From Acidimicrobiales bacterium (GTDB taxonomy: Bacteria > Actinomycetota > Acidimicrobiia > Acidimicrobiales > Aldehydirespiratoraceae), in the NCBI GenBank assembly GCA_963667505.2, contig OY763490.2:3312343-3376342 (forward strand): a stretch of 64,000 nt of DNA. Reading direction: 5' to 3'. Below are positions 22,507 through 51,057 of the stretch, one piece after another (positions within the stretch are counted from its first letter, which is position 1; the number at the start of each line of letters is the position of its first letter). Below the pieces are notes generated by a model. That model did not search any database and was not told the origin of the DNA. It was given only the letters and a program-made list of their open reading frames with translations. The translations under genes and the position numbers were made by a program.

Positions 22507-23480
<974 letters not shown>

Positions 23481-23548
23481 GACGGCTCCTCCTGTCTGGT
23501 CAGCTACAGGGACTGATCTGAGACGCTATCGAGCGGATACCCGCGCAT

Positions 23549-23600: not shown

Positions 23601-23614
23601 TGCTGGTGGGGCTG

Positions 23615-24301: not shown

Positions 24302-24395
24302 CGGTTCGGCGTCCTTCTCGGCCCTCTCTCCAGGCCGTCTCGGCGTCCGGTGTCTCAAGTGCCGTGCGGTTTGCGGGGTGCTGCCGCGGTCGGCT

Positions 24396-25565: not shown

Positions 25566-25604
25566 TGCTGGTGTTCTCCCTAGGTCTGCTCGCGTGCGGG
25601 CCAA

Positions 25605-25677
25605 GCCCCTTCGGCGCTGAACCTAGTCGGCCCGTGTTCGGGGGCGGGCCCCTTCGGCGCAGAACCTAGTCGGCCCG
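25605..25677. repeat. two ~30-bp direct repeats (GCCCCTTCGGCGCWGAACCTAGTCGGCCCG), period 43 bp
   Basis: Copies at 25605-25634 and 25648-25677, in the intergenic region upstream of the Rieske gene. Confidence 0.8.
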
Positions 25678-25717
25678 CCCGCACCGCCTCATATCGGAGC
25701 CGGGTCTGGCGGAGGCG

Positions 25718-26077
25718 CTAGAGCCGCAACGCGGGCAGCTGCTTCAGCTCCTGATTCCGCGGGTCCACCTCGATGCCGGCCGACTCCAGCGCGACGACGC
25801 CGAGCAGGGGCTCGACGTCGTCGTCGCCGAAGAGGACGGTTGTCGCGGCGTACTCGCCCATGAGCTCGATGTCCGCGCCGGCGACATCGAACTGGGCGGC
25901 GCTGCCGTCAGCCAGTACGTAGGCGCGCCTGCCTCGGGGTTCCAGGCCGATCTCCTCCAGATGCCGCCGTGGCACGAGGGTGTCGGTCGCGCCGGTGTCG
26001 ACCAGGAACAGGCCCTCCCACGATCGCTCCCGGTCGGCCGGGTTTCGGACGGTGACGGTGACATGGATCGCTCCCAT
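25718..26077 (-). CDS. retropepsin-like (clan AA) aspartyl protease domain protein
   Basis: 119 aa with LVDTGATDTLV (DTGA active-site motif) and a size typical of bacterial single-domain retropepsin-like proteins. Confidence 0.6.
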   Translation of the reverse strand: MGAIHVTVTVRNPADRERSWEGLFLVDTGATDTLVPRRHLEEIGLEPRGRRAYVLADGSAAQFDVAGADIELMGEYAATTVLFGDDDVEPLLGVVALESAGIEVDPRNQELKQLPALRL

Positions 26078-26116
26078 GGGTGTTCTCCTCTCGTTTGCGG
26101 ATCGTGCGTGCTCTGC

Positions 26117-26314
26117 TCACACGACGAGTGCGACGGTTACCAGCGCTCCCGTGAAGGCGGCCACCATCATCAGGGCGACCCTCATCATCGTCTTGGTCAG
26201 CTCCGCGATCTCCTTGTGGATCACGGCGATCAATCTGGACTCGAGCGCCTGCAAGTCCTTGGTGGTGGCCAGCGTGTCGGTAGGCACGGCTGGGTTGGGG
26301 GCATCTACGGCCAT
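26117..26314 (-). CDS. small tail-anchored coiled-coil protein (DUF1640-like pattern)
   Basis: 65 aa. TKDLQALESRL coiled segment followed by the C-terminal TM MMRVALMMVAAFTGALVTVALVV. Confidence 0.4.
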   Translation of the reverse strand: MAVDAPNPAVPTDTLATTKDLQALESRLIAVIHKEIAELTKTMMRVALMMVAAFTGALVTVALVV

Positions 26315-26433
26315 TGCATCAATCCTTCCATACCGGTTCCTTCACGGCCGATCGTAGCGTGGGATGATCGGGATGCAATGTAAAGAATGGAAATATCTTA
26401 GCCAGCAGTCAAACCAGCTGACACGGGCTGATC

Positions 26434-28164
26434 CTAGATGGTCGTCAGGGCTTGCTGAAGGGCGGTGCCGATCTTTAGGCATAGGGCGTCGGCGTGGGGT
26501 GGGGCGACGATCTGGATGGCGGCCGGGCGGGTCTCGTCGAGTGCGGTCGGCATCACGAGGGCGGGCTGGCCGGTGACGTTGAAGGGCAGGAGGGTGCGGG
26601 CCACCTTGTCGAGCCAGAGACGGTCGCCGTCGTCGAAGAAGGTGGCCGGGTCGGGTGCCGAGGTCGGCGTGGCTGCGGTGACGATCACGTCGGCCTGCTC
26701 GAAGGCCGCGTCGAGGTCCTGCTGGACGAGGCGGCGGACCCGCAAAGCCTTCAGGTAGTCCGCGGCGCCGGTGCGGGCGCCCGCGGCCAGCCGGCACGCC
26801 GCCGACGGCGTGAACTCGCCGATGCGGCCCAGGTTGCTCGCATGGTGGGCGGCGAACTCCACGACGGTGATCACCCAGGCGACGATGCCGGCCAGCTCCG
26901 CATGGGGGATCGACACCGTGATGACCTCGGCGCCTAGGCGCTCCAGCTCGCCGACGGCCGCCTCGACGGCTGCGGTCATGGCAGGACTGCACCCGTCAGC
27001 CAGCCAGCCGTCCACCACGCCCACTCGCAGTCCGTGCAGGCGGACCAGGCCATCGGGCGCCGGGGCGCGAGACTGCTTGGCACGGGCCGATCCCGCTCTG
27101 CTGGCCGCAGTCCCGGCGGCGCGGTAGTCGGGGACCGGTCGACTCGACGAATAGGGATCGGCGTCCGAGCGGCCCGCGATCACGCCCAGCACCAGGGCCA
27201 GGTCCTCGACGGTGCGAGCCATGGGCCCCACATGGTCGAGCGTCCAGGACACGCCGAAGACGCCGTCGCGGGGCACCCGGCCGAACGTTGGCTTGATCCC
27301 GCTCACGCCGCAGTACGACGACGGCACCCGGATCGACCCGCCGGTGTCGGTTCCCAGCGCCACCGGGAACAGCCCGGCGGCCAGGCCCGCAGCCGACCCC
27401 GACGAGCTTCCGCCCGCCCACCGGCCCGGCGCGGCCGGATTGACCACGCCGTCGCCGGTCTCGTCGCCGAAGGCGAACTCCGGGGTGGTGGTCTTGGCCA
27501 GGATCACCGCGCCCGCCTCCCGCAGCCGGGCCACCACGGCGGCGTCGGCGGACGGGACCCGGCCCGCGTGCAGCGGCGATCCGGCCTCGGTGGCCAGCCC
27601 CGCCGTGTCGATGATGTCCTTGATGCCGACGGGCACGCCCTCCAGCGGCCCCGCGTCACCGGCGCTCCACCGCCGGGCCGACCGGGCCGCCTGTTCTCGG
27701 GCCGTGCCATCGAGGCTCACAATCGCGCCGATCTCGCCGTCGAGTTCGTCGATCCGAGCCAGGCATGCATCCACCGCTTCGACCGGATCGAACCTCCCGG
27801 CCCGGTACCCGTCCAGCAGGGCCGCGGCGCTGAGAGCGGTGAGGTCGTCGTCGGCCCGCGCCGTCCTGCTCCCTGGCGAGAGATGGGACTCCTCGCTGGC
27901 CCCGACTGCGACCTCTGGTGCTCTACCGTCCGCGATCCAGCGGTAGCCAGCGGCCGGTCCGACGGTCTCGGGGAACGGCTCGTCCAGCGAGCGCAGCGCG
28001 GCCAGCTTGTTGCCTAGCGTGGCCTGCGCGGCCGCCGCGGCGGCCAGAATCCCTTCAGGGATCGCGACCGCTCCGTCGGTCACTGTCCAGTCGCTGGCCA
28101 CGGCCGAAACGTAACCGAGCCGCACTCGATGCGCCGCAAGGCGGCACTCCGCCGAGCGCGCCAC
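26434..28164 (-). CDS. amidase (amidase-signature family) with a possible ~100-aa N-terminal extension
   Basis: GGSSSGSAAGLAAG signature and GIKPTFGRV. The start is uncertain. The canonical amidase core begins near LTALSAAALLDGYRAG. Confidence 0.8.
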   Translation of the reverse strand: MARSAECRLAAHRVRLGYVSAVASDWTVTDGAVAIPEGILAAAAAAQATLGNKLAALRSLDEPFPETVGPAAGYRWIADGRAPEVAVGASEESHLSPGSRTARADDDLTALSAAALLDGYRAGRFDPVEAVDACLARIDELDGEIGAIVSLDGTAREQAARSARRWSAGDAGPLEGVPVGIKDIIDTAGLATEAGSPLHAGRVPSADAAVVARLREAGAVILAKTTTPEFAFGDETGDGVVNPAAPGRWAGGSSSGSAAGLAAGLFPVALGTDTGGSIRVPSSYCGVSGIKPTFGRVPRDGVFGVSWTLDHVGPMARTVEDLALVLGVIAGRSDADPYSSSRPVPDYRAAGTAASRAGSARAKQSRAPAPDGLVRLHGLRVGVVDGWLADGCSPAMTAAVEAAVGELERLGAEVITVSIPHAELAGIVAWVITVVEFAAHHASNLGRIGEFTPSAACRLAAGARTGAADYLKALRVRRLVQQDLDAAFEQADVIVTAATPTSAPDPATFFDDGDRLWLDKVARTLLPFNVTGQPALVMPTALDETRPAAIQIVAPPHADALCLKIGTALQQALTTI

Positions 28165-28184: not shown

Positions 28185-28577
28185 TCAGTCCGGTAGTTCG
28201 ACTTCGCAGCGGATGCCGTCTGCCCGTGCCAGTCGCTGGTCATAGGTCAGCAGCGTGGCGCCTATCGTCTCAGCGAGGGCTACATAGGCCGCGTCGTACA
28301 CGGTGAGGTTGTCGCGCAGCTCCCAGCAGCGTGCCAGCAGCGGTTCATGAGGAACGCGAGTGACGGGCAGCACAGCCAGGTGCCGCAACCCGCTGCGAGC
28401 GAGCGGCTCCGCCAGTTCCCCCCGCCGAACGAGCCCCCTCAGTGCCGAAGTCACTTCGAGGTCGAGCACATGCGGCGCCAGCGCGGCCTCCTTCGTGATG
28501 CGGCGCAGCACCTTGAGGTTCCGCTCGCTCGATCCAGCCACCGCCTCCGTGGCCACGCTGGCGTCGACGACAATCAA
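28185..28577 (-). CDS. vapC: PIN-domain toxin VapC
   Basis: MIVVDASV N-terminus, 130 aa, with a 4-nt overlap with the upstream antitoxin gene. Confidence 0.8.
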   Translation of the reverse strand: MIVVDASVATEAVAGSSERNLKVLRRITKEAALAPHVLDLEVTSALRGLVRRGELAEPLARSGLRHLAVLPVTRVPHEPLLARCWELRDNLTVYDAAYVALAETIGATLLTYDQRLARADGIRCEVELPD

Positions 28578-28816
28578 TGCGACTCGCGATCGGCCCGAAT
28601 GATCTCCACGATCATGCTCGAATCCAAGTGCGTCTCACCATGAGAAAGAGCCTCTACCCGCTTGCGAGCGAGCATCTCCTCGGCGCTGGCGAGATCCGCC
28701 TGTCGACAGATCGCGTCAAGCATGTACTGTTGCAACGACTGGCTGGCCGCGGCAGCCCGGATCCTGAGCTTGCGATGGACGTCCTCGGGCACGTGTTTGA
28801 TCTGGATGGTGGCCAT
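28574..28816 (-). CDS. vapB: antitoxin VapB (FitA/Arc-like ribbon-helix-helix)
   Basis: MATIQIKHVPEDVHRKLRIRAA N-terminus typical of FitA-like antitoxins. 80 aa. Confidence 0.75.
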   Translation of the reverse strand: MATIQIKHVPEDVHRKLRIRAAAASQSLQQYMLDAICRQADLASAEEMLARKRVEALSHGETHLDSSMIVEIIRADRESH

Positions 28817-28891: not shown

Positions 28892-29602
28892 TCATCGCCC
28901 CCCATCCTCGTAGGCGACCGCAGCGGCGAAGCGCTCTGTGCCGATGTTGTGGAGCCTCCAAGTGACATCGGGCACCTCAGCGAACCGGAAGGAGCCGCTC
29001 GCAGCGCCTTGGCGCATGGTCTGGGGGATCTCGAAGCTGGCGACGTCCATTGAGAGGCCTGTTCCTAGGGCCTTGCTGAGGGCTTCCTTCATCGTCCACA
29101 GGTCGAGGAACAGACGGAGCTTGCGGCTTCCGCCGGCCGCGGCCATGTCGGCTCGTTCATCAGGGCCGAAGACCGCCTCGACCAGCGTGTCGAGGTTGCG
29201 CTGCGGGACCCGCTCCTCGACATCGACGCCCACCCGGCCGCGGGAGGCCAGCGCGATCAGGCCGTGCTGGCCGCTGTGGCTGACGTTGAAGCCGATGGGT
29301 GCCCGGAGTCTGTTGACGGTGGCGAAGGGCTTCCCGTGCTCGGCCGTGTCGAATGCGAGCTTGCGGTTGGCGCAGCCCAGAGAATCACAGAGCAGCGAGC
29401 GCAGAGACGCCCGGCACAGGACGTACCGGCGTCTGGCACCAGTGTGCTGGAAGCGGTGCGCTCTACGCCGCTCCTCGGCGTCCAGCCATGCCCAAGCCGC
29501 CCTCTCGTTGGCTTCGTGGCGCACCAAGTCGACATGCACGACAGTGACGCCGTCGAACTGCGTGAACGGCTGCCACCAGTCGCCGACGAGGCCGAGCGCC
29601 AC
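28892..29602 (-). CDS. 4'-phosphopantetheinyl transferase (Sfp type)
   Basis: FNVSHSG, GVDVE and WTMKEALSKALGTG motifs. Confidence 0.8.
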   Translation of the reverse strand: MALGLVGDWWQPFTQFDGVTVVHVDLVRHEANERAAWAWLDAEERRRAHRFQHTGARRRYVLCRASLRSLLCDSLGCANRKLAFDTAEHGKPFATVNRLRAPIGFNVSHSGQHGLIALASRGRVGVDVEERVPQRNLDTLVEAVFGPDERADMAAAGGSRKLRLFLDLWTMKEALSKALGTGLSMDVASFEIPQTMRQGAASGSFRFAEVPDVTWRLHNIGTERFAAAVAYEDGGR

Positions 29603-29685
29603 GGCGGCGGGCCTCTATGGGGCTCCCGGGACTAGGCGACCCGGGGCGTTGCGACGGGATCCGCCCGATTGTCTCAGCCGGGCGG

Positions 29686-29928
29686 TCAGGTGCGGGCGTC
29701 GAGGTAAGCGACCAGATCGCTCGGCGTCAGCAACTCGCCGAACTCCTCGGCTGAGATGTCGATGCCGAACTCCTCGCACACGAGCTTCCAGAACGCCACG
29801 ACATCGGTGGAACTGACTCCCGAATCGACGATGCTGCGATCGTGGTTCAGCGGCTCACCCGGCTCCCTGCCCTCGATATGCAGGTTGTCGTCGATCAGAG
29901 TTCGAATGCGGTCCTCGGTGTTGGACAT
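29686..29928 (-). CDS. free-standing acyl/peptidyl carrier protein
   Basis: 80 aa with four-helix-type spacing. The candidate Ppant serine lies in VDSGVSSTDVV. Confidence 0.7.
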   Translation of the reverse strand: MSNTEDRIRTLIDDNLHIEGREPGEPLNHDRSIVDSGVSSTDVVAFWKLVCEEFGIDISAEEFGELLTPSDLVAYLDART

Positions 29929-30001
29929 ATGATGTAATATCCTTCCTTGTCATGCCTCTGTGAGCATGGCTAATGATGGTTATCACGTAGCCGGTGCAAC
30001 G

Positions 30002-30985
30002 TCAAGCTGCGAGCGTACTCCGTATCAGCCTTCGGTCGCGGTCGCTGAAGTAGGCACACTCCGCGAGGAGGTCGCCGTCCTTCGCTCCGGCTTCGGCGAT
30101 CTCGATGTGCTGGCGGGTGGCCGCCTTGTAGGGGAAGATTCCCTTGGCGTACTGCTTGGCGGGGAACTCCAGGGCCTGCGCCCGGTTCAGGTCGTAGCGC
30201 GAAGCCGCATCGATGAAACGCAGCACGTACGCGGCGCGATGCGAGAGCTCTCCCTCGCCGAGCATGACGCTCCGGTGGGCGACCGTCTTGTTGAACAGGA
30301 GCACATCGCCGGGATCGAAGTCGTCCTCCACCTGGTGCACCTCGAGAAGCTCATCCATCAAGGGGGAGTTCAGGATCCCCTCTCTGAGGCCGCTGTAGTC
30401 CACAAGACTCGTCCTGGTCCCGGACCGTTCTCTGGCCTTGAGCACCTCGACGACCGCCAAGTCCGCCGAGTAGACGAACTCGCCCGGCAGCACATGCTGA
30501 GGAACGTAGGCCATGCCGCCGCGCTGTCCGCTGGCATCTATGGGCTGCAGCGGCGCCCACAGCGTGCATCCGAAGTCCTCGGCGAACTGGAAGCCGAAGC
30601 TCTGCACGCCGACATGCCACGGAAACCCCTTGTTGACGTTCTTCTCGACCTCGAAGGACAACTCGAAGGTGAGAAAGAGGTCGTGGCCTGCCAAGCCGGT
30701 CAGAGCCTGCCGGAAATAGGGGCGCTCCAACAGCTCGAAAAGGTCGGTCTTGGCGGCCTCGAAGTCGTACTGCACCTTGCTGAACAGGGCGTTCTTGCCG
30801 CTGTAGGAGTTGGCGGCGCTGCGGTTCAACTCGATATCGGTGCGATTGAGCAGCATGCCGACCACGCTGGCATTCAGGAATCCCTCGAGCTTGACGAAAC
30901 CGTCGCGCTGGAATTGCTCCTTCTGCTCGTCGGTGACGACGAACTCGTTGTCGAAGGGATGGCCGGTCACGATGGGCTCAGGCAA
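30002..30985 (-). CDS. PhyH-family Fe(II)/2OG oxygenase with HxG at the first iron-ligand motif (candidate halogenase)
   Basis: N-terminal TDEQKEQFQRDGFV PhyH pattern. WHVG (His124, Gly126; nt 30608-30616) sits where PhyH hydroxylases have WHxD. Distal His in NKTVAHRS and Arg in RAAYVLRF. TTG 30985 or GTG 30970 start. Confidence 0.6.
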   Translation of the reverse strand: MPEPIVTGHPFDNEFVVTDEQKEQFQRDGFVKLEGFLNASVVGMLLNRTDIELNRSAANSYSGKNALFSKVQYDFEAAKTDLFELLERPYFRQALTGLAGHDLFLTFELSFEVEKNVNKGFPWHVGVQSFGFQFAEDFGCTLWAPLQPIDASGQRGGMAYVPQHVLPGEFVYSADLAVVEVLKARERSGTRTSLVDYSGLREGILNSPLMDELLEVHQVEDDFDPGDVLLFNKTVAHRSVMLGEGELSHRAAYVLRFIDAASRYDLNRAQALEFPAKQYAKGIFPYKAATRQHIEIAEAGAKDGDLLAECAYFSDRDRRLIRSTLAA

Positions 30986-31880
30986 GTCCGGCTGGCGCCA
31001 GGAAGCCGCGCATGGCCTCCACGCACTTGGCGGGCTGCTCCAACTGGAGGAAATGAGTGGCGTCGGGCAGGAAGTCGTAGTCCACGGTCAACATGTCGCT
31101 CAGGTCCAGAGTCGGCAGGTAGGAGTACGGCAGCGTCGGGTCGGCGCCGATCACCTTCGTGGGGCACTGCAGGGCCGAGAAGTCGACCAGCACCGCGAAG
31201 AGCCGCGCGTGGGCGATGATCTGCGCTTCATGCTCCCGCGGGCATCTCAGCTCGAAGCCGGAGCCGTCCTCGGACTCGCGCAAGGTCGTCGTCGCCATCA
31301 GGTCGATCACACCGGGCACGGTGTGCTTGAACGTGGGCATGAAGCCGAGCAGTTCCATGTAGTCCTCTCTGGTCTTGAAGCTCGGCGCTCGTCGGCTTGC
31401 CGCCTTGGCTGTCCGTTCGGCTGCCTCGTCGAACTCGTTCCTGGTCGCGCCCGGTTTGCGCAGGGGAGGATCGAACAGGATGAGGGCCGAGAGCCGGCTG
31501 CCGTTGGTGGGGGACAGCAGCGGCGCAAAGGACGAGACGGAGTGGAACACCCCGACCTGCGGCTTGGCGCCGTAGTGGCGGTCGATCTCGTCGAGGATGC
31601 GGTCGTGGTCGCTGACGAAGGTCGGCACGCTGTGGTTCGAGAGGGGACCGACGGCATTCCAGCCGTGGCTTCTCAGGTCGTAGACGACAAGGTCGAAGTC
31701 CTCGGTCAGCAGTGACCAGAACGGGTAGTAGAGATCAATCGACAGGCCGTTGCCGTGGCTGAGAATGAGCCGGGTGCCTTGGGGGTTGCCGTGGCGGCGC
31801 AGCACAATGGTCGTGTCCTCGTCCACCCGCACCTCGTGGGCGGACCGCGGCTCAGGGATGGCCCAGACAGGGTCTGACAT
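30978..31880 (-). CDS. alpha/beta hydrolase fold protein, paralogue A
   Basis: SHGNGLS oxyanion region, GVFHSVSS elbow, DATHFLQLE His region. Start at ATG 31880 chosen by alignment with paralogue B (track alternative 31976). Confidence 0.7.
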   Translation of the reverse strand: MSDPVWAIPEPRSAHEVRVDEDTTIVLRRHGNPQGTRLILSHGNGLSIDLYYPFWSLLTEDFDLVVYDLRSHGWNAVGPLSNHSVPTFVSDHDRILDEIDRHYGAKPQVGVFHSVSSFAPLLSPTNGSRLSALILFDPPLRKPGATRNEFDEAAERTAKAASRRAPSFKTREDYMELLGFMPTFKHTVPGVIDLMATTTLRESEDGSGFELRCPREHEAQIIAHARLFAVLVDFSALQCPTKVIGADPTLPYSYLPTLDLSDMLTVDYDFLPDATHFLQLEQPAKCVEAMRGFLAPAGLA

Positions 31881-32012
31881 GATGAGGCCGAAAGATTCGA
31901 TCCTGCGCCGAAGCCATGCTTGAGAGGCCCCTTCGTTGTCGGACGGTTCTTGGGGAGGCCGCGACCCTACTTCCAAGCCGTCCGAACTACTCGCACGGTT
32001 GCCTCAGCGCGT

Positions 32013-41774
<9,762 letters not shown>

Positions 41775-41841
41775 CGGTGAACCCCCCGCCTCGCGCGCAG
41801 ATGGTAGTGGCCGAGGGTCGAGCCGAATCAGGCGTCCCGGG

Positions 41842-43590
41842 CTAGCTCGTCGACCTGACTTGCACGGTGACGATGTCGAGCCCGTGGAACTTCTGATGGT
41901 GCACCGACGAGGCGTAGTGGCGCAGCAGCTGCAGGGAGATCTCGCCGCCCTCGACGCCCTGGGCGCCCTGGGCCTCCTCGCTCAGGTACGCCAGCCGGTC
42001 CTCGAGGTTCTCGTCGTCGAACACGGCCAGGAACTCCAGCTCGATCACTGGTCCGCTGGGGCGGGCCTCGATGATCAAGCGGGGCGCCTTGTCGGCTCGC
42101 CCGTCGCTGCTCTGCTGGAGGCTGATCAGCGTCTCCTCCGCGGCGGCGTGCAGCCGCTGTGCCGAGGCGTCGTCCCAGCCCGCGGCGGCGGCCACCGGAT
42201 CGAGGAACTCGACGATGTCGGGCACAGAAGCCAGGTCCAGCCCGACCTCGAGCCGCCTCCGGCCGCGCGGGCCGGTCAGGTTCAGGAACACCGTCATCGC
42301 CACCGCGGCGACCGCGCCGGCCAGCAGCCCGTTGTCCAGAAGCTTGCCCCAGGTGCCCCCCAGCGTGTCGGCGATGATGGTCTGCTGGTCGAGGCCGGCC
42401 CCGAACGCGAACGCCAGTCCGGCCACCAGCGCCTTCTGGCCGTCGAGCCCGTCCTGCACGACCGACCGCACCCCGCCCATGAAGATCAGCGCGATGGCGG
42501 TGAGCACGTAGGCCGCCATCACCGGGCTGGGAATGGTCAGCAGGACGGCGGTCGCCTTGGGGAGAAACGCCAGCGCGGCCAGGGCCCCGCCGATCACCCA
42601 CCCGGCGCGCCGGGACGCCACCCCGGTGAGGCTCGTGAGCGACACGCTCGTGGACGAGTAGACGGTGGTGGGCGGCGCCCCGGCGAGGCCGGAGAACAGG
42701 ATGCCGAGCCCGTTGGTGTTCAGGGAGCCCTGCACGACCCGGAAGTCGGTGGCCCTCGGCCTGCGCCGGCAGGCCTGCTGCACGGCCACGCAGTCGCCCA
42801 TGTTCTTGACGCCGCCCACCAGGGTGACCACCACGAAGGCGGGCAGCAGGGTCCAGAAGCCGATGCCAGGCGTCAGGTCGATCCCCGGAAATCCAGCGTC
42901 GGGAATTCCGGCCCAGGGGGCGTCGGCCACCGGTGAGGCGTCGTAGGTGCCGAGCGGGATCGAGACGGCGCAGCCCGCGGCCAGGCCGACCACCGGTGAC
43001 CAGAGGCGCCAGGCGCCGGTGGCTCGAAATGCCATCGCCGCGGTGACGGCCAGCGTGACCAGGGTGATGGCGGGGCCGGCCGCGTCGGGCGCGCCCTCGG
43101 GCACCTCCTGGACCCTGTCGAACGCGACCGGCAGGATCGTGACCGCGATCAGCATGAGGACCGTGCCCGACACCACCGGCGTGATCACCCTGCGCAGCAG
43201 CGGCAGCCACAGCGCCAGCGCCACGTAGAACAGCGCCGCCGCGGCGGTGAGGCTGGCCAGCAGGGGCGGCCCTCCCTCGTTGAGGGCCAGCACCGAGACG
43301 GCCACGAAGTTGGGGGTGGTGCCCATGATCAGGATGTGGCCCGCGCCGAACCGCCACCACCTGGTCGCCTGGAGCGCGGTCAGGGTTCCGGCGATCACCA
43401 GCGAGGCGAAGACGGCCCATTGGAGGTAGCGGTCGTCCTGGCCGCCGGCTCGTGCGGTGACGGCCACGATCAGCACCAGCGGCGCCAGCGCGAGGACCGC
43501 GCCCTGCAGGCCCACCGCGGCCAGCACCGGCGCCGGGCACGGCTCGTCGGGCTCGAAGCGGATCGAGTCGTTGGTGCCCGGAGCGCTCAC
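41842..43590 (-). CDS. NCS2-like (xanthine/uracil permease family) transporter with a C-terminal ~143-aa soluble domain, paralogue T1
   Basis: ITPVVSGTVLMLIAVTILP and TGVASRRAGWVIGGALAALAFLPK...IPSPVMAAY follow NCS2 signatures. Soluble tail at 41845-42273. Confidence 0.65.
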   Translation of the reverse strand: MSAPGTNDSIRFEPDEPCPAPVLAAVGLQGAVLALAPLVLIVAVTARAGGQDDRYLQWAVFASLVIAGTLTALQATRWWRFGAGHILIMGTTPNFVAVSVLALNEGGPPLLASLTAAAALFYVALALWLPLLRRVITPVVSGTVLMLIAVTILPVAFDRVQEVPEGAPDAAGPAITLVTLAVTAAMAFRATGAWRLWSPVVGLAAGCAVSIPLGTYDASPVADAPWAGIPDAGFPGIDLTPGIGFWTLLPAFVVVTLVGGVKNMGDCVAVQQACRRRPRATDFRVVQGSLNTNGLGILFSGLAGAPPTTVYSSTSVSLTSLTGVASRRAGWVIGGALAALAFLPKATAVLLTIPSPVMAAYVLTAIALIFMGGVRSVVQDGLDGQKALVAGLAFAFGAGLDQQTIIADTLGGTWGKLLDNGLLAGAVAAVAMTVFLNLTGPRGRRRLEVGLDLASVPDIVEFLDPVAAAAGWDDASAQRLHAAAEETLISLQQSSDGRADKAPRLIIEARPSGPVIELEFLAVFDDENLEDRLAYLSEEAQGAQGVEGGEISLQLLRHYASSVHHQKFHGLDIVTVQVRSTS

Positions 43591-43609
43591 AGCGGCACGG
43601 TCTCCGTGC

Positions 43610-44542
43610 TCAGGCCAGACCGACCGACGCCAGGAAGCCGCGCAGCGCGGCGGCGCAGTCCGCGGGCTTCTCGAGCTGGAGGAAGTGGGTGGTGTCGGGC
43701 AGGAAGTCGTAGTCCACGGTCACCATCTCTCGCAGGTCCAACGGCGGCAGGTACGTGTAGGGCATGACCGGGTCGCCTCCGATGACCTTGGTGGGGCAGC
43801 GGAGGGCCTCGAAGTCGACCAGCACTGCGAAGATGCGGGCGTAGGCGATGATCTGGGCCTCATGCTCGCGGGGGCACCGTAGTTCGTAGCCGTAGCCGTC
43901 GGCGCTCTCCCGCAGCGTGGTCCGGGCCATCAACTCGTACATGCCGGCGACGGCGTGCTCGAACTTCGCCAGCGAGCGGAGACGGTCGGCGAAGTGCTCC
44001 CTGGTGGCGAACCGGAAGGAGCGGCGCTGGGCGATCTTGGCGGCCCGGTCGGCGGCGTCGTCGAAGGGGGTGCGGTCCGCGCCGGGCTTGCGCATCAGCG
44101 GGTCGAACAGGACGAGCGCGTCGAACCGGCTGCCCTCGGTGGGCGACAGCAGCGGCGCCAGCGCCGAGACCGAGTGGAACACGCCCGCCTGGGGCTTGGG
44201 GCCGTAGCGGCGGTCGATGGCGTCGAGGATGCGCTCGTGGTCATTGACGAGGTCGGGCACGGTGTGGCCCGCCAGCGGGCCGACCGGGTTCCAGCCGTGG
44301 CTCCGCAGGTCGTAGACGACGATGTCGAAGGTGTCGGTCAGCCGCGCCCAGAACGGGTAGTACAGGTCGACCGACAGTCCCACCCCGTGCGACACCACCA
44401 GCCGGGTGCCCAGCGGGTTGCCGTGCCGGCGCAGGACGATGGAGGCGCCCCCGTCCGCCTCGACCCTGCAGATCGACAGCGGCTCAGGAACAGGCCACGC
44501 CACCCCCGATCCCACCGGCCCAACCGTACCGGGCGCCGACAC
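43610..44542 (-). CDS. alpha/beta hydrolase fold protein, paralogue B
   Basis: Alignable end to end with 30978..31880. Shared blocks: IVLRRHGNP.GTRL, DLRSHGWN, GVFHSVS, LRCPREHEAQIIA, CPTKVIG, VDYDFLPD.THFLQLE. Confidence 0.7.
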   Translation of the reverse strand: MSAPGTVGPVGSGVAWPVPEPLSICRVEADGGASIVLRRHGNPLGTRLVVSHGVGLSVDLYYPFWARLTDTFDIVVYDLRSHGWNPVGPLAGHTVPDLVNDHERILDAIDRRYGPKPQAGVFHSVSALAPLLSPTEGSRFDALVLFDPLMRKPGADRTPFDDAADRAAKIAQRRSFRFATREHFADRLRSLAKFEHAVAGMYELMARTTLRESADGYGYELRCPREHEAQIIAYARIFAVLVDFEALRCPTKVIGGDPVMPYTYLPPLDLREMVTVDYDFLPDTTHFLQLEKPADCAAALRGFLASVGLA

Positions 44543-44560
44543 GGCTCCCGAGAGGGCCGG

Positions 44561-46309
44561 CTAGCCGCCCGCCCCGACGTGCACGGTCACGACGTCGAGG
44601 CCGTGGAACTTCTGGTGATGCACCGCCGACGCGTAGTGCCGCAGCAGCCTGAGCGAGATCTCTCCCTCCTCCAAGCCGTCGGTGCCCTGGGACTCCTCGC
44701 TCAGGTAGGCCAGCCGGTCCTCGAGGTTCTGCTCGTCGAACACGGCCAGGAACTCCATCTCCACCGCGTCTTCGCCGAGGCGCGCCTTCACTATCAGCCG
44801 GGGCGCGTCGTCGCTCGGGGCGTCGTCCTGCTCCAGCAGGCTCATCAGGGCCTCCTCGCCCGCGGAGCGGAGCCGTTGCGCGGCCGCTTCCTTCCAGCCG
44901 ACTCTGGACGCGAAGCGGGCGAGGAACTCGTCGATCTCTGTGAGCGCCGACATGTGGAGCCTGGACTCGAGCCGCCCGCTTCCCTTCCGGTCGGCGATGT
45001 TCAGCAGGCGTGTGATGAGGATCACGACCAGCGCGCCGACCAGCATGCCGTTGTCGATGAGCAGCCCCCATGGGTCGCCCAGCGTGTCGGTGCCGATGGT
45101 CTGGTTGTCGAGGCCCACGCCCAACGCGAACGCCACCCCTACCGCCAGCGTCTTTCCGGCGGAGAGGCCGTCGCGGATCACAGTCTGGATGCCGCTCACG
45201 AACACCAGGCCGATGGCGGTCAGCACGTAGGCCGCCAGGACCGGGCTGGGGATGGACAACAGCACTGCGGCCACCTTGGGCAGCAGCGCCACCGTCGCTA
45301 GCAGCGCGCCGATCCAGAAGCCGACGGCGCGTGCCGCCACTCCGGTGAATTGCACCAGCGACGAGCTGAACGACGAGTAGACGGTCGTTGGCGGGGTGCC
45401 CGCGAGGCCCGAGAGCACAATGCCGAGCCCGTTGGTGGCGAGTGATCCCTGCACCAGCCGGAAGTCGGTCGCCCGGCGCCGGCGCCGGGAGACTTGCTGA
45501 ATGGCGACGCAGTCCCCGATGTTCTTCATGCCGACCACGAGGGCCACCACCACGAATCCCGGCAGCAGCGCCAGGAACTCGGGGCCGGGAGTCAAGTCGA
45601 GTCCAGGGAGGCCGCCGTCGGGCAGGCCCGCCCATGCCGAGTCCAGGATCGGCCCGAGCTCGTATGCCCCGAAGGCGGCGGCCACGACGCAGCCGGTCGC
45701 CAGGGCCAACAGCGGCGACCAGACCCGCCACAAGCCGGTGAGCCGCGTCGTCAGCAGGAGCATGGCGATGAGCGTCACCAGCGCCACCACCGGGCCAGCG
45801 GCGGCGGGCGTGTCCTCGGGGATGTCCTGCAGCAGGTCGATCGCTATGGGCAGGATGGATGCCGCGATCAGCATGAGCACCGTGCCCGAGACTGTGGGCG
45901 TGACGATCCGGCGTAGCAGCGGAAGGCGCGAGGCCAGAGCGAGGTAGCACAGCGATGTCGCCACGGTGAGGCTGGCCAGCAGGCCCGGGCCGCCGACGGT
46001 GAGGGCCAGCACCGAGACAGCCACATAGTTGGGGGTGGGTCCCATGATCAGGATGTGGCCCGCGCCGAACCGCCACCACCGGGTGGCCTGCAGCGCGGTG
46101 AGGACTGCGGACACAATCAAGGAGGCGAAGATGGCCCAGGCCAGGTAGCCGTCGTCCTGATCGCTGGCCCGGACGGTGATGGCCACGACCACCACGATCG
46201 ACACCAGAACCATGGTCAGCCCCTGAGCGCCGACGCCGAGAGCCAGCCGCGGCGGGCAGGGCTCGTCCGGCTCGTAGCGAATGGCGTCGTCGGCGTTCTG
46301 GGCGGTCAT
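44561..46309 (-). CDS. NCS2-like transporter with C-terminal soluble domain, paralogue T2
   Basis: Shares IRYEPDEPCP, LQATRWWRFGAGHILIMG, FLAVFDEQNLEDRLAYLSEE and LLRHYAS.VHHQKFHGLD with T1 and T3. Tail at 44564-44992. Confidence 0.65.
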   Translation of the reverse strand: MTAQNADDAIRYEPDEPCPPRLALGVGAQGLTMVLVSIVVVVAITVRASDQDDGYLAWAIFASLIVSAVLTALQATRWWRFGAGHILIMGPTPNYVAVSVLALTVGGPGLLASLTVATSLCYLALASRLPLLRRIVTPTVSGTVLMLIAASILPIAIDLLQDIPEDTPAAAGPVVALVTLIAMLLLTTRLTGLWRVWSPLLALATGCVVAAAFGAYELGPILDSAWAGLPDGGLPGLDLTPGPEFLALLPGFVVVALVVGMKNIGDCVAIQQVSRRRRRATDFRLVQGSLATNGLGIVLSGLAGTPPTTVYSSFSSSLVQFTGVAARAVGFWIGALLATVALLPKVAAVLLSIPSPVLAAYVLTAIGLVFVSGIQTVIRDGLSAGKTLAVGVAFALGVGLDNQTIGTDTLGDPWGLLIDNGMLVGALVVILITRLLNIADRKGSGRLESRLHMSALTEIDEFLARFASRVGWKEAAAQRLRSAGEEALMSLLEQDDAPSDDAPRLIVKARLGEDAVEMEFLAVFDEQNLEDRLAYLSEESQGTDGLEEGEISLRLLRHYASAVHHQKFHGLDVVTVHVGAGG

Positions 46310-46313
46310 CGGG

Positions 46314-48122
46314 CTAGCCCGCGGCGTTGACCTGCACGGTCACCACGTCCAGTCCGTGGAACTTCTGGTGATGCACCGATGAGGCGTAATGCCTCAGCAG
46401 CCTGAGCGAGATCTCGCCGTTCTCCGTGTCGGAGACGCTCTGTGACTCCTCGCTCAGATGGGCGAGGCGGTCTTCTATGTTCTGCTCGTCGAACACCGCC
46501 AGGTACTCCATCTCCACGGTCGCCCCGCTGTTGCGGGCGACCACGATCAGACTGGGAGAATCGTCGGCCGAGTCGGCGACCGGGTGTTCGTCGTGTTGCC
46601 GGGCTGGGCCTGGCGGCGCCTCCTCGTTCGGGCGGTCGCCCTGGTCCAGCAGGCTCATCAGCGTCTCCTCGCCGGCGGCACGAAGCCGCTGCGCGGCGGC
46701 GTTGTTCCACCCGATGTCGGCCGCGAAGCCGCGGAGGAACTCGTCGATCTCGTTCACGGACGAGGGATGCAGGTCGACCTCGAGGCGCGCCCGCCGGCCT
46801 CGGCTGGACAGCTCCGCGAGCCGGGTCAGCACCACCGCGGCCACCGTGCCGGCCAGCAGGCCGTTGTCGAGCAGCGGCGCCCATGTCTCGCCCAGCACTT
46901 CGGCGCCGACGGTCTGGTTGTCCAAGCCCACGCCCAAGGAGAACGCGAGCCCTACCGTGATGGCCTTGCCCCGGTCGAGGCCGTCGGCCACCATTGCCTG
47001 GACGCCGCGCCCGAACAGCACTCCGATGGCAGTGACCAGATAGGCGCCCATCACCGGGCTGGGGATGGCCAGCAGCACCGCGGTCACCTTGGGCATCAGC
47101 GCCAGCATCACCATGATCAGCCCGATGGCGTAGCCGACGCGGCGGGCGGCCACGCCGGTGAGGCTGATCAGCGAAGGGCTCGACGACTCGTAGACGCTGG
47201 TGGGCGGCGTGCCGGCGATGCCCGACATCAGTATTCCGAGTCCGTTGGTGTTGAGCGATGCCTGCACCAGCCGGAAGTCGGTCACCCGGGGCTTGCGCCA
47301 CGACAGCTGCTGGATGGTCACGCAGTCGCCGATGCTCTTGACGCAGCCCACTAGGGAGACCACCACGAACCCCGGCAGCAGGGCCCAGAACTCGACGCCC
47401 GGGGTCAGATCCAGTCCCGGGAATTCGGCTGCGGGGAGCCCGACCCATGCGGCGTGACGAATGTGCTCGACGTCGTAGGCACCGAACGGCACCGCCGCCA
47501 GGCACCCGGAAGCGATGGCCATGAACGGCGACCAGATACGCCAGGAACCTGAGACCCGCACGGACAGCACCACCACCGCGGCCAGGGTCACCAGAGCCAC
47601 CACCGGGCCGGCCGCGGCGGGCGCGTTCTCGGGCACCTCGTCCACCCGGTCGAGCGCGACCGGCAGGATCGTGGCCGCGATCAGCATGCACACCGTGCCC
47701 GACACCACTGGCGTGATGACCCGGCGCAGCAGCGGGAGCCAGAGGGACAGCACGGTGTAGAAGATCCCGGCAGCGATGGTGAGGCTGGCCAGCAGGGTCG
47801 GACCGCCCGCGGTCAGCGCCAGCACCGCGAGCGCCACGTAGCTGGGCGTCGGCCCCATGATCAGGATGTGGCCGGCGCCGAGTCGCCCGAAGCGCCCCGC
47901 CTGCATCGCAGTCAGCAGTCCGCCGATGATCAGCGAGGCGGCCACCGCCCACGTGAGGTAGCTCTCGCCCTGGTTGCCCGCCCGGGCGGTGATGGCCACG
48001 ACCAGCACCATCGTCGTCAGCGCGAGCATCACTCCCTGGGCCCCGACGACCAGCGCTATCAGGGGCGGGCAGGGCTCGTCCGGCTCGTAGCGGATGGCGT
48101 CCTCAGACTGCGGAGCGCTCAT
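46314..48122 (-). CDS. NCS2-like transporter with C-terminal soluble domain, paralogue T3 (20-aa insertion in the tail)
   Basis: Same conserved blocks as T1 and T2. Tail at 46317-46805. Confidence 0.65.
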   Translation of the reverse strand: MSAPQSEDAIRYEPDEPCPPLIALVVGAQGVMLALTTMVLVVAITARAGNQGESYLTWAVAASLIIGGLLTAMQAGRFGRLGAGHILIMGPTPSYVALAVLALTAGGPTLLASLTIAAGIFYTVLSLWLPLLRRVITPVVSGTVCMLIAATILPVALDRVDEVPENAPAAAGPVVALVTLAAVVVLSVRVSGSWRIWSPFMAIASGCLAAVPFGAYDVEHIRHAAWVGLPAAEFPGLDLTPGVEFWALLPGFVVVSLVGCVKSIGDCVTIQQLSWRKPRVTDFRLVQASLNTNGLGILMSGIAGTPPTSVYESSSPSLISLTGVAARRVGYAIGLIMVMLALMPKVTAVLLAIPSPVMGAYLVTAIGVLFGRGVQAMVADGLDRGKAITVGLAFSLGVGLDNQTVGAEVLGETWAPLLDNGLLAGTVAAVVLTRLAELSSRGRRARLEVDLHPSSVNEIDEFLRGFAADIGWNNAAAQRLRAAGEETLMSLLDQGDRPNEEAPPGPARQHDEHPVADSADDSPSLIVVARNSGATVEMEYLAVFDEQNIEDRLAHLSEESQSVSDTENGEISLRLLRHYASSVHHQKFHGLDVVTVQVNAAG

Positions 48123-48344
48123 CGCTCTGTAAGTAGTTGAACATTTCTCGCATAGATATGTAGATGTGTAGCACGCGCGCCGACGGTTGCTCAGGAAGCT
48201 CTCGGGACCTCAGCCCAGAGGCGCCGGACGGCCATCGTCGCGATCCCGGCAGCCGGCCCGGACGACTCAGGCAGCCCGCCGCGCGGACCTCCTCGGCTGG
48301 GACGGGCTTGGACTCGGGTTCGGGGGCTCCGGTAGGGTCGGGGC
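48123..48344. promoter_or_regulatory. divergent intergenic region with an AT-rich island and a tandem 8-mer TAGATRTG
   Basis: The AT-rich stretch 48127-48172 contrasts with the flanks. tagatatg is at 48153-48160 and tagatgtg at 48161-48168. It lies between the minus-strand permease/PKS array and a plus-strand Rieske gene. Confidence 0.35.
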
Positions 48345-49526
48345 GTGATCGCGGACTTGGAGCACGAGCCGATCGTGGAGCGGCTGCGGCGCACGGCGGG
48401 CGAGACGGCCGGGCTGGTGGACGCCCCGCTGGCGAGCCCGATGCTGCAGCCCTACGAGGTGTACGACCAGGAGCTGTTCGACCTGGAGATGGTGCGGGTG
48501 TTCGCCCGGTCGTGGGTATGGCTGGGCGACACCGAGGACCTGGCCGAGCCCGGCGACTACATCACCGGCACCATCGGCTACCAGCCGGTGATGGTGATCC
48601 GCCAGGAGGACGGCTCGGTGCGGGGCTTCCTCAACAACTGCCGCCACCGGGCGTCGGGGCTGTTGTTCGAGCCGGCCGGCAACTGCGGCAAGACCATGAC
48701 CTGCCCGTACCACAACTGGGCCTACGCCATCGACGGCCGCCTTGTCGGCATCCCCGACCGGGCCCGCATGTACCCCGACGGGATGCCCGCCGAGGACTAC
48801 GGGCTGGCCCCGATCCGCATCGAGGTGGCCTGGGACAAGCTTGTGTTCGGCTGCCTGTCGCGGCGGGCGCCGTCGTTCCGCGAGTGGATCGCCCCGCTGG
48901 CCGAGCGCTACGACCTCTACAAGTTCGGCAGTTTCACCCGCTACTACCGCGAGCTCGACGAGACCTACCCGATCAACTGGAAGGCCTTCGCCGAGAACTC
49001 CAACGACGACTACCACGTCCGCTTCGTGCACCGGCGCCTCAACAAGCTGCGCAAGCAGATGGACACCATCGTCCGTTTCGAGGGCCGCACCTGCAGCGGG
49101 TTCAAGCCCCACGCCGACGATGACGACGCCGCCGGCGGGCGCACCGACCTGACCTCCGAGCAGCTCCTAGGGCACTACGCCGACTTCATCTACCCCAACC
49201 TCACCCCGCTGCCGTACCCGACGCAGCTCATCCTGGTGCGGGCCGACCCCGTGGCGCCCGACCGCACCCGGCTGTTCAGCCGCATCTACGGGATCGACAA
49301 GTCCATCGAGGAGCAGGACTTCGAACTCGACCGTCTTGCCGTCACCAACCTCGAGGACACCAACATGGTGACCGAGCTGATGAAGAACCTGCGGTCGCCG
49401 TTCTACCGGGTGGGGCCCGCCTCCAGCTGGGAGGGCCGTGCCGCCCATGTCATGAAGCTGGTGCGGACCGACGTGGCCACGCCGCTGGCCGACGACGAGT
49501 TCACAGCCCCGCGGTCGACGGCATGA
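48345..49526 (+). CDS. Rieske (2Fe-2S) non-heme iron oxygenase alpha subunit
   Basis: CRHRASGLLFEPAGNCGKTMTCPYHNW. GTG start at 48345. Confidence 0.85.
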   Translation: MIADLEHEPIVERLRRTAGETAGLVDAPLASPMLQPYEVYDQELFDLEMVRVFARSWVWLGDTEDLAEPGDYITGTIGYQPVMVIRQEDGSVRGFLNNCRHRASGLLFEPAGNCGKTMTCPYHNWAYAIDGRLVGIPDRARMYPDGMPAEDYGLAPIRIEVAWDKLVFGCLSRRAPSFREWIAPLAERYDLYKFGSFTRYYRELDETYPINWKAFAENSNDDYHVRFVHRRLNKLRKQMDTIVRFEGRTCSGFKPHADDDDAAGGRTDLTSEQLLGHYADFIYPNLTPLPYPTQLILVRADPVAPDRTRLFSRIYGIDKSIEEQDFELDRLAVTNLEDTNMVTELMKNLRSPFYRVGPASSWEGRAAHVMKLVRTDVATPLADDEFTAPRSTA

Positions 49527-49583
49527 GCGGCGCCGCGTGACCGACACGACATGAGCTGGCGCCGCGTGACCGGCACGACATGA
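49523..49583 (+). repeat. 29-bp tandem duplication of the stop/start junction (ATGAGC.GGCGCCGCGTGACCGRCACGAC)
   Basis: Units at 49523-49551 and 49551-49579, then the aldolase ATGAGT at 49580. Creates two mini-ORFs (MSGAA*, MSWRRVTGTT*). Confidence 0.85.
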
Positions 49584-50365
49584 GTGCTCCGTTCTCGGCC
49601 GTGTCGGCCGGCAAGCGTCGTCGCTTCCGTCACATCTTCGGCGACGACGGCAGGGCCGTGTTCGTGGCTATGGACCACCCCGCCTACATGGGCATGGGCG
49701 TGGTGCCCGAGGCGGCGGCCGCGATCGCCGAAGGCGGCCCCGACGCGATCCTGGCCACTTGGCAGCTGGCTCGGGCCCGCCCGGAAGCATTCGCAGGCTC
49801 GGGACTGGTGCTGCGGGTGGACGGCGGCATCTCCGACCTAGGCGAACCTCCTGGCTCCGACACCACGTCGCTGCTGTACTCGGCCGAACAGGCCATGGTG
49901 CTGGGCGCGGACGCGGTGGTGCTCATGGTGTTCCCCGGCACGCCCGACGAAGACCGCTCACTCGCCCGCCTCGCCCGCCTCGCCGCCGAGTGCGAACTGC
50001 TCGGGCTGCCGGTGATGGCCGAGTCGATACCGGGCGGCTGGCCCCGCACCGTGCCCTGGACTGCGGAGAACGTCGGCCGCGGCGCCCGCCTCGCCGTCGA
50101 GCTCGGCGCCGACATCGTCAAGACCATGTGTCCCGGCGCCCCCGAGGAGTTCGCCGCGGTGGCCGACGCCTGTCCCGCTCCGGTGGTGGCGCTGGGCGGT
50201 CCCAAGGTGGACGACGAGGACCAGGTGGTCGCGCTGGCCCGGGGGGTGGTGGAGGCCGGTGGCGCAGGCGTGGCCTTCGGCCGCAACGTCTGGGGGTCCG
50301 ACGACCCGGCCGCACTGGTGGGCCGCCTGCTGGAGGCCGTCCACGTCGCCGACGGCGCTAGCTGA
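49580..50365 (+). CDS. class I aldolase family protein (DhnA/FbaB/LsrF type)
   Basis: FGDDGRAVFVAMDHPAYMG and GADIVKT (candidate Schiff-base Lys) pattern. Confidence 0.7.
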   Translation: MSAPFSAVSAGKRRRFRHIFGDDGRAVFVAMDHPAYMGMGVVPEAAAAIAEGGPDAILATWQLARARPEAFAGSGLVLRVDGGISDLGEPPGSDTTSLLYSAEQAMVLGADAVVLMVFPGTPDEDRSLARLARLAAECELLGLPVMAESIPGGWPRTVPWTAENVGRGARLAVELGADIVKTMCPGAPEEFAAVADACPAPVVALGGPKVDDEDQVVALARGVVEAGGAGVAFGRNVWGSDDPAALVGRLLEAVHVADGAS

Positions 50366-50458
50366 CGGGAGGCTGGGTGCCGCCGATGGTTGCGCAGCCG
50401 GTGTCGGAGTCCGCCGCGGCGGCGACGGCCGCGGCGTGAGGCTCGCAGAGTCCCGCTG

Positions 50459-51025
50459 ATGGCCCAGCAGACGGCGTCGGCAGTGGACGATGATCTCTAT
50501 AGGCGCCTCGCGGGCTTGGCTTCGGCCGAGGCGGCCGACCGGGGGCCTGGGCACCCCGAACTGCGTCCTGCGGTCGAGCAGGCCCTCTACCACGAGGCCA
50601 GGCTGCTCGACGAGCGCCGCTACCGCGACTGGCTGGAACGGTTCACCGACGACTGCGTCTACTGGGTGCCCCTCGACCCCGACGCAGACCCCCGCACCCA
50701 GGTGTCGTACCTGCTCGACGACCGGCGCCGGATGCAGGACCGGATCGGGCTGCTGGAAACAGGATGGGCCCACGCCCAGGAGCCGCCGTCGCGCACCTGC
50801 CGCATCGTGTCCAACGTGGAGGCGTGGCCGCTCGACCCCGGCGGCGAGACCCTGGCCCGTTGCTCGACGGTCGTGTGGGAGCACCGCAAGGACCGGCTGA
50901 CCCCGTTCGCCAGCCGCAACGACTACGTGCTGGCCTCGCTGGGCGACGAATGGGCCGTCAGATACAAGATCGTGCGGCTGGTGGACTGCTCCGGCGACGT
51001 GCGCAAGTTCTCGTTCGTGCTATAG
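50459..51025 (+). CDS. aromatic-ring-hydroxylating oxygenase beta subunit (NTF2-like)
   Basis: ALYHEARLLDERRYRDWLERFTDDCVYWVP pattern. ATG 50459. Confidence 0.8.
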   Translation: MAQQTASAVDDDLYRRLAGLASAEAADRGPGHPELRPAVEQALYHEARLLDERRYRDWLERFTDDCVYWVPLDPDADPRTQVSYLLDDRRRMQDRIGLLETGWAHAQEPPSRTCRIVSNVEAWPLDPGGETLARCSTVVWEHRKDRLTPFASRNDYVLASLGDEWAVRYKIVRLVDCSGDVRKFSFVL

Positions 51026-51057
51026 ATGCGGCCAGAACACCGAAGCGAGGTGCCGAC

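Follow-up and report, generated by a model that had tools for sequence, protein, structure and literature searches.

A probable sup-type polyketide synthase cluster from an Acidimicrobiia sponge symbiont, with multiplied permease and hydrolase genes and a predicted BtnX-type halogenase

The sup (sponge symbiont ubiquitous polyketide synthase) cluster was reportedly named by Fieseler et al. in 2007 and is said to have been taken up as well by Hochmuth et al. in 2010. It encodes an unusual, small, monomodular polyketide synthase (PKS) that is dominant in sponge metagenomes (PMC4245539; PMC3908369); in one survey sup sequences accounted for more than 99% of ketosynthase (KS) amplicons, and they are the most abundant PKS genes of high-microbial-abundance sponges (PMC4245539). 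The cluster has been found in metagenome-assembled genomes (MAGs) of many phyla (PMC9426513), its proposed products are mid-chain methyl-branched fatty acids (PMC4245539), and SupE (ABE03914) has been tabulated as a permease homolog (PMC3908369). This article examines a 64,000-nucleotide stretch of an Acidimicrobiales bacterium (contig OY763490.2, positions 3,312,343 to 3,376,342; hereafter the window), in which nine minus-strand genes at 28892-48122 form an array that we read, with a probability of roughly 60%, as a sup-type cluster of an Acidimicrobiia sponge symbiont, expanded and bearing a halogenase gene, the SupA and SupE assignments being made by architecture and published descriptions.

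Two other described systems invite comparison with the array. The swf cluster (SwfA-C) resembles it in its sponge-symbiont distribution, in its single-module PKS/fatty acid synthase and in the presence of a SupE-like permease on the fosmid (PMC3908369), but SwfA has neither the methyltransferase (MT) domain nor the second KS, and it is accompanied by a reductase/sulfotransferase and a radical SAM (S-adenosylmethionine) enzyme. BtnX of Dinoroseobacter shibae is an Fe(II)/alpha-ketoglutarate radical halogenase (PDB 9PV1 and 9Q04; Kipouros and Chang, Nature 2026; PMC13489965) that 2R-chlorinates biotin and many free acids with a propionate head group, including fatty acids, and that transfers bromine and azide as well; in its active site Y64, Q119, S120 and R248 hold the carboxylate, and G117 leaves room for the halide (PMC13489965).

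Like the described sup clusters, the array couples a single-module type I PKS, which has a C-methyltransferase (cMT) domain and a full reducing loop, to genes for an acyl carrier protein (ACP), a phosphopantetheinyl transferase (PPTase), a hydrolase and an NCS2-like permease; it differs from them in having three permeases, two hydrolases and a BtnX-type halogenase, and a second PKS has apparently been lost. Relatives were sought in one genome per species with an alignment of the two hydrolases, HydA and HydB, as the query, which returned 573 relatives, and the best 80 loci were studied by counting, with tblastn and the window proteins, the neighbours present within 10 kb of the hydrolase. Among these best 80 of the 573 hydrolase loci, a PKS of the same architecture as in the window, KS-AT-DH-cMT-ER-KR-ACP-KS (with acyltransferase, dehydratase, enoylreductase and ketoreductase domains), was present at 60, a free ACP at 62, a permease at 56 and a PPTase at 54. 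All 80 come from MAGs, which span about eight phyla and many of which have sponge-derived names or bin labels; they include Acidimicrobiia (Ca. Aldehydirespirator), Latescibacterota, Gemmatimonadota, Dehalococcoidia/Chloroflexota and Acidobacteriota, together with Binatia, Thermodesulfobacteriota, Ca. Poriferisocius and Spongiisociaceae. In the closest genomes, which are Acidimicrobiia sponge-symbiont MAGs (Ca. Aldehydirespirator), the cluster occupies the same chromosomal site, adjoining a Rieske gene of about 90% identity. On this ground an origin in a Streptomyces-type actinomycete, at which the GC content of 70% might hint, was rejected in favour of a symbiont like Ca. Aldehydirespirator. 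The order met most often is PKS-ACP-PPTase-hydrolase, the permease being encoded on the other strand, and by this order SupB to SupD would be the ACP, the PPTase and the hydrolase; the SupE-type permease is represented in the array by three genes of the Xan_ur_permease family.

Strand and spacing alone are ordinary for a bacterium, and it is the co-conservation across phyla that lifts the array above chance. An earlier reading of this DNA from its letters alone (the sequence-only reading) had proposed one co-conserved biosynthetic unit without an assigned product and had named a lack of co-conservation in related genomes as grounds for giving the idea up; on the counts above that objection clearly fails. 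The same reading did not recognise the combination of genes and spoke of an atypical supporting cast, neither of which can be upheld, as the combination matches the sup family and permease, hydrolase, ACP and PPTase are the normal sup cast at the frequencies just given. What sets the window copy apart is its halogenase and the fact that it has three permeases and two hydrolases. The cluster type is therefore a known one and an ordinary possession for a sponge-symbiont genome, and what is new is a copy that bears a halogenase and multiplied permeases and hydrolases and has apparently lost a PKS. At several related loci (L017-L022, L037, L042 and L076) the genes run permease-hydrolase-PPTase or ACP-PPTase-hydrolase, with or without a permease, and no SupA-type PKS is present within 10 kb; the accessory genes are thus separable from the PKS.

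The features of the array, from its upstream end, are these:

48127-48172, minus strand: AT-rich island adjoining the T3 start codon on its upstream side, 37% GC against about 70% for the genome.
46314-48122, minus strand: T3, a SupE-like permease of the NCS2 family, 602 aa (Pfam Xan_ur_permease, 116 bits).
46317-46805, minus strand: C-terminal domain of T3, predicted to be RsbW-like.
44561-46309, minus strand: T2, a SupE-like permease, 582 aa (Pfam), with its C-terminal domain at 44564-44992.
43610-44542, minus strand: HydB, an alpha/beta hydrolase, 310 aa (Abhydrolase_6).
41842-43590, minus strand: T1, a SupE-like permease, 582 aa (Pfam), with its C-terminal domain at 41845-42273.
32013-41774, minus strand: SupA-type PKS, 3253 aa, KS1-AT-DH-cMT-ER-KR-ACP-KS2 followed by an AT-less KS-AT linker.
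30978-31976, minus strand: HydA, an alpha/beta hydrolase, likely start ATG 31880 (301 aa).
30966-30989, minus strand: HydA/halogenase junction, GGACTTGCCTGAGCCCATCG followed by TGACC, in which the conserved hydrolase-stop/PKS-start overlap is kept.
30002-30970, minus strand: predicted BtnX-type Fe(II)/alpha-ketoglutarate radical halogenase, 322 aa, start GTG 30970 (match to PDB 9pv1).
29686-29928, minus strand: free ACP, 80 aa, with a VDSG serine motif (PP-binding).
28892-29602, minus strand: Sfp/HetI-type PPTase, 236 aa, with GVDVE and WTMKEALSKA (ACPS and AASDHPPT_N).

The domain order of the PKS, as given by Pfam, ends in a second KS (KS2) that is followed by a linker of the KS-AT type, without an AT and without a thioesterase; KS2 and its linker are encoded at about 32016-33845, and the C-terminal post-AT motif of the protein reads YPFQRQHYW. 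Both KS domains carry Cys-His-His, a triad that in KS2 is kept family-wide among the SupA homologs, and KS1 carries the motifs DPQQR and EAHGTGT, DPQQR and HGTGT being the PKS primer targets with which supA has been recovered from sponges (PMC4245539; PMC3908369). The AT has GHSLGE, the DH HxxxGxxxxP and the MT LEVGAGTG, and the NADPH, DH and ER motifs are intact. Since KS2 retains an intact Cys-His-His and has no AT of its own, the free ACP would be the natural partner of the AT-less second module, and this partnership is likely. The specificity motif of the window AT is QGYHS, as against HAFH or YASH. In about 17 of the SupA homologs (L001-L091) the active-site GHS of the AT is replaced by GQG, GHG or GSG, and these homologs without the AT serine have probably lost acyltransferase activity. 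In the KR (34554-35082), the segment GQTNHGAANAF (PKS residues 2371-2381, nucleotides 34632-34664) has His for the catalytic Tyr of the canonical GQxNYAAANAFLD, and the same His stands in all of the approximately 63 SupA homologs extracted (L001-L091; GQANHAAANAF and variants). We know of no precedent for this exchange of the catalytic Tyr for His in a KR.

Between HydA and the free ACP lies an open reading frame (ORF) of 327 aa when read from its TTG, which has a weak Pfam match to PhyH and an HxG motif, WHVGVQ, aligned to H115 and G117 of BtnX. Its match to PDB 9PV1 (BtnX of D. shibae) has an E value of 9e-119, compared with 7e-28 for the match to CurA Hal; it is 58.6% identical to BtnX, and Y64, H115, G117, Q119, S120 and R248 are all kept. 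Because so strong a match to a crystallised enzyme is combined with the retention of every active-site residue, the protein is very probably a halogenase, and the sequence-only suggestion that the HxG oxygenase be regarded as one, and its product sought through Cl/Br isotope patterns, was sound. The 2-His-1-Gly iron site and Y64, Q119, S120 and R248 are common to the two proteins, and the chemistry to be expected would be C-2 halogenation of free acids. Their settings differ in that btnX is a plasmid gene beside a BioY/ECF biotin importer, with no PKS near, whereas the window gene is chromosomal and belongs to a PKS cluster. In the D. shibae plasmid pDSHI01 (89186-90118; L092) btnX is annotated as a hypothetical protein and is flanked by a recombinase, a transposase and the BioY/ECF genes.

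The carrier-dependent halogenases CurA Hal, SyrB2, CmaB and BarB1 share with the window protein a cupin fold, an HxG/A iron site, a PKS setting and a nearby carrier protein gene, but they act on thioester-tethered substrates, whereas the window protein keeps the free-carboxylate residues of BtnX, and they are distant from it (the E value for CurA Hal given above, and about 30% identity). Assignment to a CurA/SyrB2-type carrier-dependent halogenase was accordingly ranked below the BtnX type on identity and on the carboxylate-binding residues. Biotin was considered as the substrate and set aside, there being no BioY/ECF gene in the window. A fatty acid is more likely than biotin to be the native substrate, because the gene is part of a PKS cluster on the chromosome, with a hydrolase gene on one side and that of a free ACP on the other.

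At E values of 1e-20 or lower the halogenase family numbers at least 263 proteins, and the few with source names come from MAGs that belong to the same phyla as those with the sponge-symbiont loci. The carboxylate-binding residues are kept in 115-120 of 121 aligned homologs, in which position 117 is Gly in 111, Asp or Glu in seven and Cys in three. The HxD/E members are P0018, P0041, P0052, P0060, P0088, P0114 and P0117, and the HxC members P0047, P0084 and P0098; by their sequence, those with Asp or Glu are natural counterparts of the engineered BtnX G117D/E hydroxylases. One HxE member (L088, 10001-11002) lies beside a permease-hydrolase-PKS unit, in divergent orientation to it. When homologs with at least 60% identity were considered, seven of the nine distinct contexts proved to be beside sup genes, in Acidimicrobiia (in the order Hyd-PKS-Hal-ACP-PPTase-amidase), in Gemmatimonadales, in Nitrospinae and in a 6.7-Mb genome. 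A literature search returned nothing relevant that ties supA to a halogenase.

HydA and HydB are paralogs with 66% identity, and HydB shows an FHSVS nucleophile elbow and a C-terminal His motif, THF..LE.P. They are plausible stand-ins for a thioesterase, so that the sequence-only statement that none is present holds for the PKS itself and less well for the array as a whole. The position of HydA also bears on how this copy arose. At 16 related Acidimicrobiia loci the stop of the hydrolase gene and the start of a PKS gene overlap in TTGCCTGA, which encodes LP(D/E)...SPIAVVGMA; the window has the same TTGCCTGAGCCCATCG, but there it leads directly into the halogenase start instead of a PKS. The order Hyd-PKS-Hal-ACP-PPTase is found in relatives, and a related Aldehydirespirator (OZ241894.1; L014/L091) has two tandem sup units, permease-PKS-ACP-hydrolase-PKS-ACP. 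The first PKS of OZ241894.1 is the closest relative of the window PKS in the reference genomes, with KS domains 88-91% identical. Between T3 and the PKS the GC content is 0.70-0.73, and between HydA and the PIN gene it is 0.60-0.68. From the junction overlap, the gene order of the relatives, the tandem-unit relative and the drop in GC, we infer that the array represents two adjacent sup units that merged when the second PKS gene was lost; the HydA/halogenase junction resembles a scar left where a second supA gene was deleted.

The three permeases are mutually 60-62% identical. Each matches Xan_ur_permease over residues of about 25-400 and continues for about 150-200 further residues that comprise a transmembrane tail and a soluble domain, in agreement with the sequence-only description of three NCS2-like permeases each with an extra soluble domain. 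They score 116-132 bits against Pfam Xan_ur_permease (cut-off 27), only 151-156 bits against NCBIfam TIGR00801 (cut-off 291.8), and E values of 1e-12 to 1e-13, over partial length, against UraA; the NAT signature N.G....[ST][GRK] had no match in T1, the one permease scanned for it. T1-T3 are accordingly treated as a divergent NCS2-like subfamily. T1 has at least 1269 homologs, and those among the matches listed are mostly about 575-600 aa long and aligned over 98-100% of the query, so most T1 homologs appear to keep the C-terminal domain.

That domain is not recognised by Pfam at normal thresholds, T2 giving a weak match to HATPase_c_2 (E = 0.009). For the last 143 residues of T1 the AlphaFold model has a pLDDT of 77, and its top 19 Foldseek matches are all UsfX, RsbW or SpoIIAB (E values of 1e-7 to 3e-4, TM scores of 0.56-0.83; the best, at 1e-7, have TM scores of 0.66-0.82), so the domain as modelled has the fold of the RsbW/SpoIIAB anti-sigma factors, a Bergerat/GHKL alpha-beta sandwich. 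On inspection of the alignment, the C-terminal domains of T1-T3 have no N-box Asn and no Gly of the G1 box (DxGxG), and the stretches at the two positions read AAEETL.SL and AVFD(D/E)(E/Q)N.EDRL. The arrangement recalls the SulP/SLC26 transporters, in which a 7+7 'elevator' permease core related to NCS2 is likewise fused to a cytoplasmic domain from the partner-switching toolkit. However, the SulP/SLC26 domain is STAS, from the antagonist side of that toolkit, whereas the fold in the window belongs to the side of the anti-sigma factor/kinase (RsbW/SpoIIAB), and the window domain appears to be without the ATP-binding N-box Asn and G1 box. On the swf fosmid, ORFs for STAS (anti-anti-sigma) proteins flank the SupE-like permease (PMC3908369), which by analogy hints at partner-switching control; no STAS gene was seen beside the permeases in the contexts examined.

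If these parts act together, the PPTase would convert the ACP domain of the PKS and the free ACP into their holo forms, and the SupA module would extend an acyl primer with malonate, methylate the alpha-carbon with SAM and reduce the product fully, which would introduce one methyl branch. KS2, without an AT or ACP of its own, would then take the chain and condense it with malonyl on the free ACP, loaded in trans, and hand it on to further elongation or release. An alpha/beta hydrolase would release the free acid, the BtnX-type enzyme would chlorinate or brominate C-2 of the freed acid, and the SupE-like permeases might carry the product or a precursor across the membrane, their RsbW-like C-terminal domains giving regulatory control. 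As a wider and more tentative reading, doubtful but possible, sup in a subset of sponge symbionts would end in BtnX-type C-2 halogenation of a methyl-branched fatty acid, or in C-2 hydroxylation where the enzyme is of the HxD/E kind, and the product would pass through NCS2-like permeases fused to an anti-sigma-factor domain.

Several points weigh against this account. NCS2 transporters are cation-coupled and typically importers, a habit that fits export poorly. The halogenase was found in none of the 80 hydrolase-anchored loci, and halogenation is therefore not part of the core pathway; the enzyme is an accessory of a subset of sup clusters across phyla. Because its gene adjoins that of the free ACP, it may act on an ACP-bound substrate as CurA Hal does. 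The His for Tyr in the KR of every homolog examined means that full reduction is not assured. The chemical steps, moreover, are inferred from a cluster identity and domain content that were observed, and the product of sup has never been demonstrated.

Three other explanations deserve consideration beside that of an expanded, halogenase-bearing sup cluster. The best placed of them, although we consider it unlikely, is that the array is a plain sup lipid pathway whose mid-chain methyl-branched fatty acids go into membrane lipids, with a halogenase that acts cryptically, as does CurA Hal, whose chloride is subsequently lost, or on an unrelated substrate. A methyl-branched fatty acid is the published proposal (PMC4245539), most sup loci are without a halogenase, CurA Hal is the nearest ACP-dependent relative of the window protein, at the E value already given, and in L081-L085, as in the window, the halogenase gene comes directly before that of the free ACP. 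The four BtnX free-carboxylate residues are nevertheless kept in the window protein and in nearly all aligned family members, at the counts given above, which argues for a free acid over a thioester as the substrate, and no enzyme downstream that would eliminate chloride is evident in the array.

Less probable still is that the permeases, the hydrolases and the halogenase make up a module of uptake and modification with only a loose link to the PKS, one that imports a carboxylate, ester or vitamin from the host or a neighbour, hydrolyses it and halogenates it, as BtnX does with biotin. The importing habit of NCS2 transporters in general would suit such a module, as would the BioY/ECF importer that adjoins BtnX in D. 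shibae (PMC13489965), the retention of accessory sets without a PKS within 10 kb at L017-L022, L037 and L076, and the catabolic character of the window flanks (Rieske oxygenases and amidases). Against it, a PKS does lie within 10 kb in 60 of the 80 loci, an ACP or PPTase is still linked where the PKS is absent, the window is without the BioY or ECF gene already mentioned, and the overlap of hydrolase stop and PKS start in the 16 relatives implies translational coupling of the two.

That the array is a decaying mosaic, its second PKS deleted, the ACP after its first PKS gone and the remainder perhaps no longer one pathway, is very improbable: the junction scar, the compositional break with the 132-nt PKS-HydA spacer, the His in the KR and the want of the ACP that directly follows the orthologous PKS in a relative could all be so read, but the nine ORFs are intact with GC3 (GC at third codon positions) of 0.83-0.95, a second, near-identical strain has the same order (Rieske, then T3 T2 HydB T1 PKS) at 94-100% identity, the Tyr-to-His exchange is family-wide and thus not decay, and one ACP and one PPTase remain.

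The ORF listing, filtered for high GC3, and Pfam together bear out the nine minus-strand genes at 28892-48122 in the order and with the labels given by the sequence-only reading. With the most likely start codons, the gaps from T3 to the PPTase are 4, 18, 19, 67, 132, 7, 73 and 83 nt; an upper limit of about 130 nt, as first proposed, agrees with this, whereas the lower limit of minus 8 is obtained only if the oxygenase starts at TTG 30985. For that gene GTG 30970 is favoured by the homologs and by a 322-aa database protein, and for HydA ATG 31880 is the likely start because homologs align from residue ~32 onward. The 132-nt PKS-HydA spacer is of lower GC. The absence of a discrete AT, also proposed at the outset, needs the qualification that Pfam places an AT domain within the PKS, and the best NCBIfam match of the PPTase is HetI, under the cut-off of that model. 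The AT-rich island was correctly described and lies in a 222-nt divergent intergenic region common to T3 and the Rieske oxygenase gene; it is likely to be the promoter region of the array. A scan for the sigma-70 consensus had no match in the island (48127-48172), and a scan for promoters and terminators gave one weak plus-strand match and zero terminators.

The co-directional run does not end at 28892 as had been supposed, since minus-strand genes go on to 19213 and comprise a VapBC-like pair, an amidase, a Rieske oxygenase, a flavin reductase, E1 alpha/beta, a lipoyl protein, an SDR and MCH. The flanks (19213-28164 and 48345-52371) are dense in catabolic genes, with four Rieske oxygenase alpha subunits, the amidase and flavin reductase, E1 alpha/beta, a lipoyl carrier, the SDR, methenyl-H4MPT cyclohydrolase and a DeoC aldolase, and the genes from amidase to SDR, downstream of the array, form a block that shows synteny with L081-L083. 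The VapBC-like toxin-antitoxin pair (28185-28816; a FitA-like ribbon-helix-helix protein and a PIN protein) has the PPTase on one side and the amidase on the other. Six close relatives have the orthologous pair (73-92% identical) inverted and on the opposite side of the cluster, between the Rieske gene and the permease, and in others the amidase gene comes straight after that of the PPTase.

Through the array, a family of enzymes characterised recently becomes linked to an abundant gene cluster with a long-sought product. With a BtnX relative present in sup clusters of several phyla, the product to be expected is narrowed to a free carboxylic acid whose C-2 is an unsubstituted methylene, and there is a mass-spectrometric signature that could be sought in sponge lipid extracts. 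The family-wide Tyr-to-His exchange in the KR and the joining of a permease to an anti-sigma-factor fold are oddities that can be tested as well. Halogenases linked to sup also suggest that lipid tailoring, as against vitamin modification, is what much of the BtnX family natively does. Should the wider reading be true, most members of the 'biotin halogenase' family would be lipid-tailoring enzymes, the permeases would be a previously unrecognised NCS2-like class gated by a fused, ATP-blind anti-sigma-factor domain, and a Cl/Br isotope signature would be the first chemical handle on the nearly 20-year-old question of the sup product.

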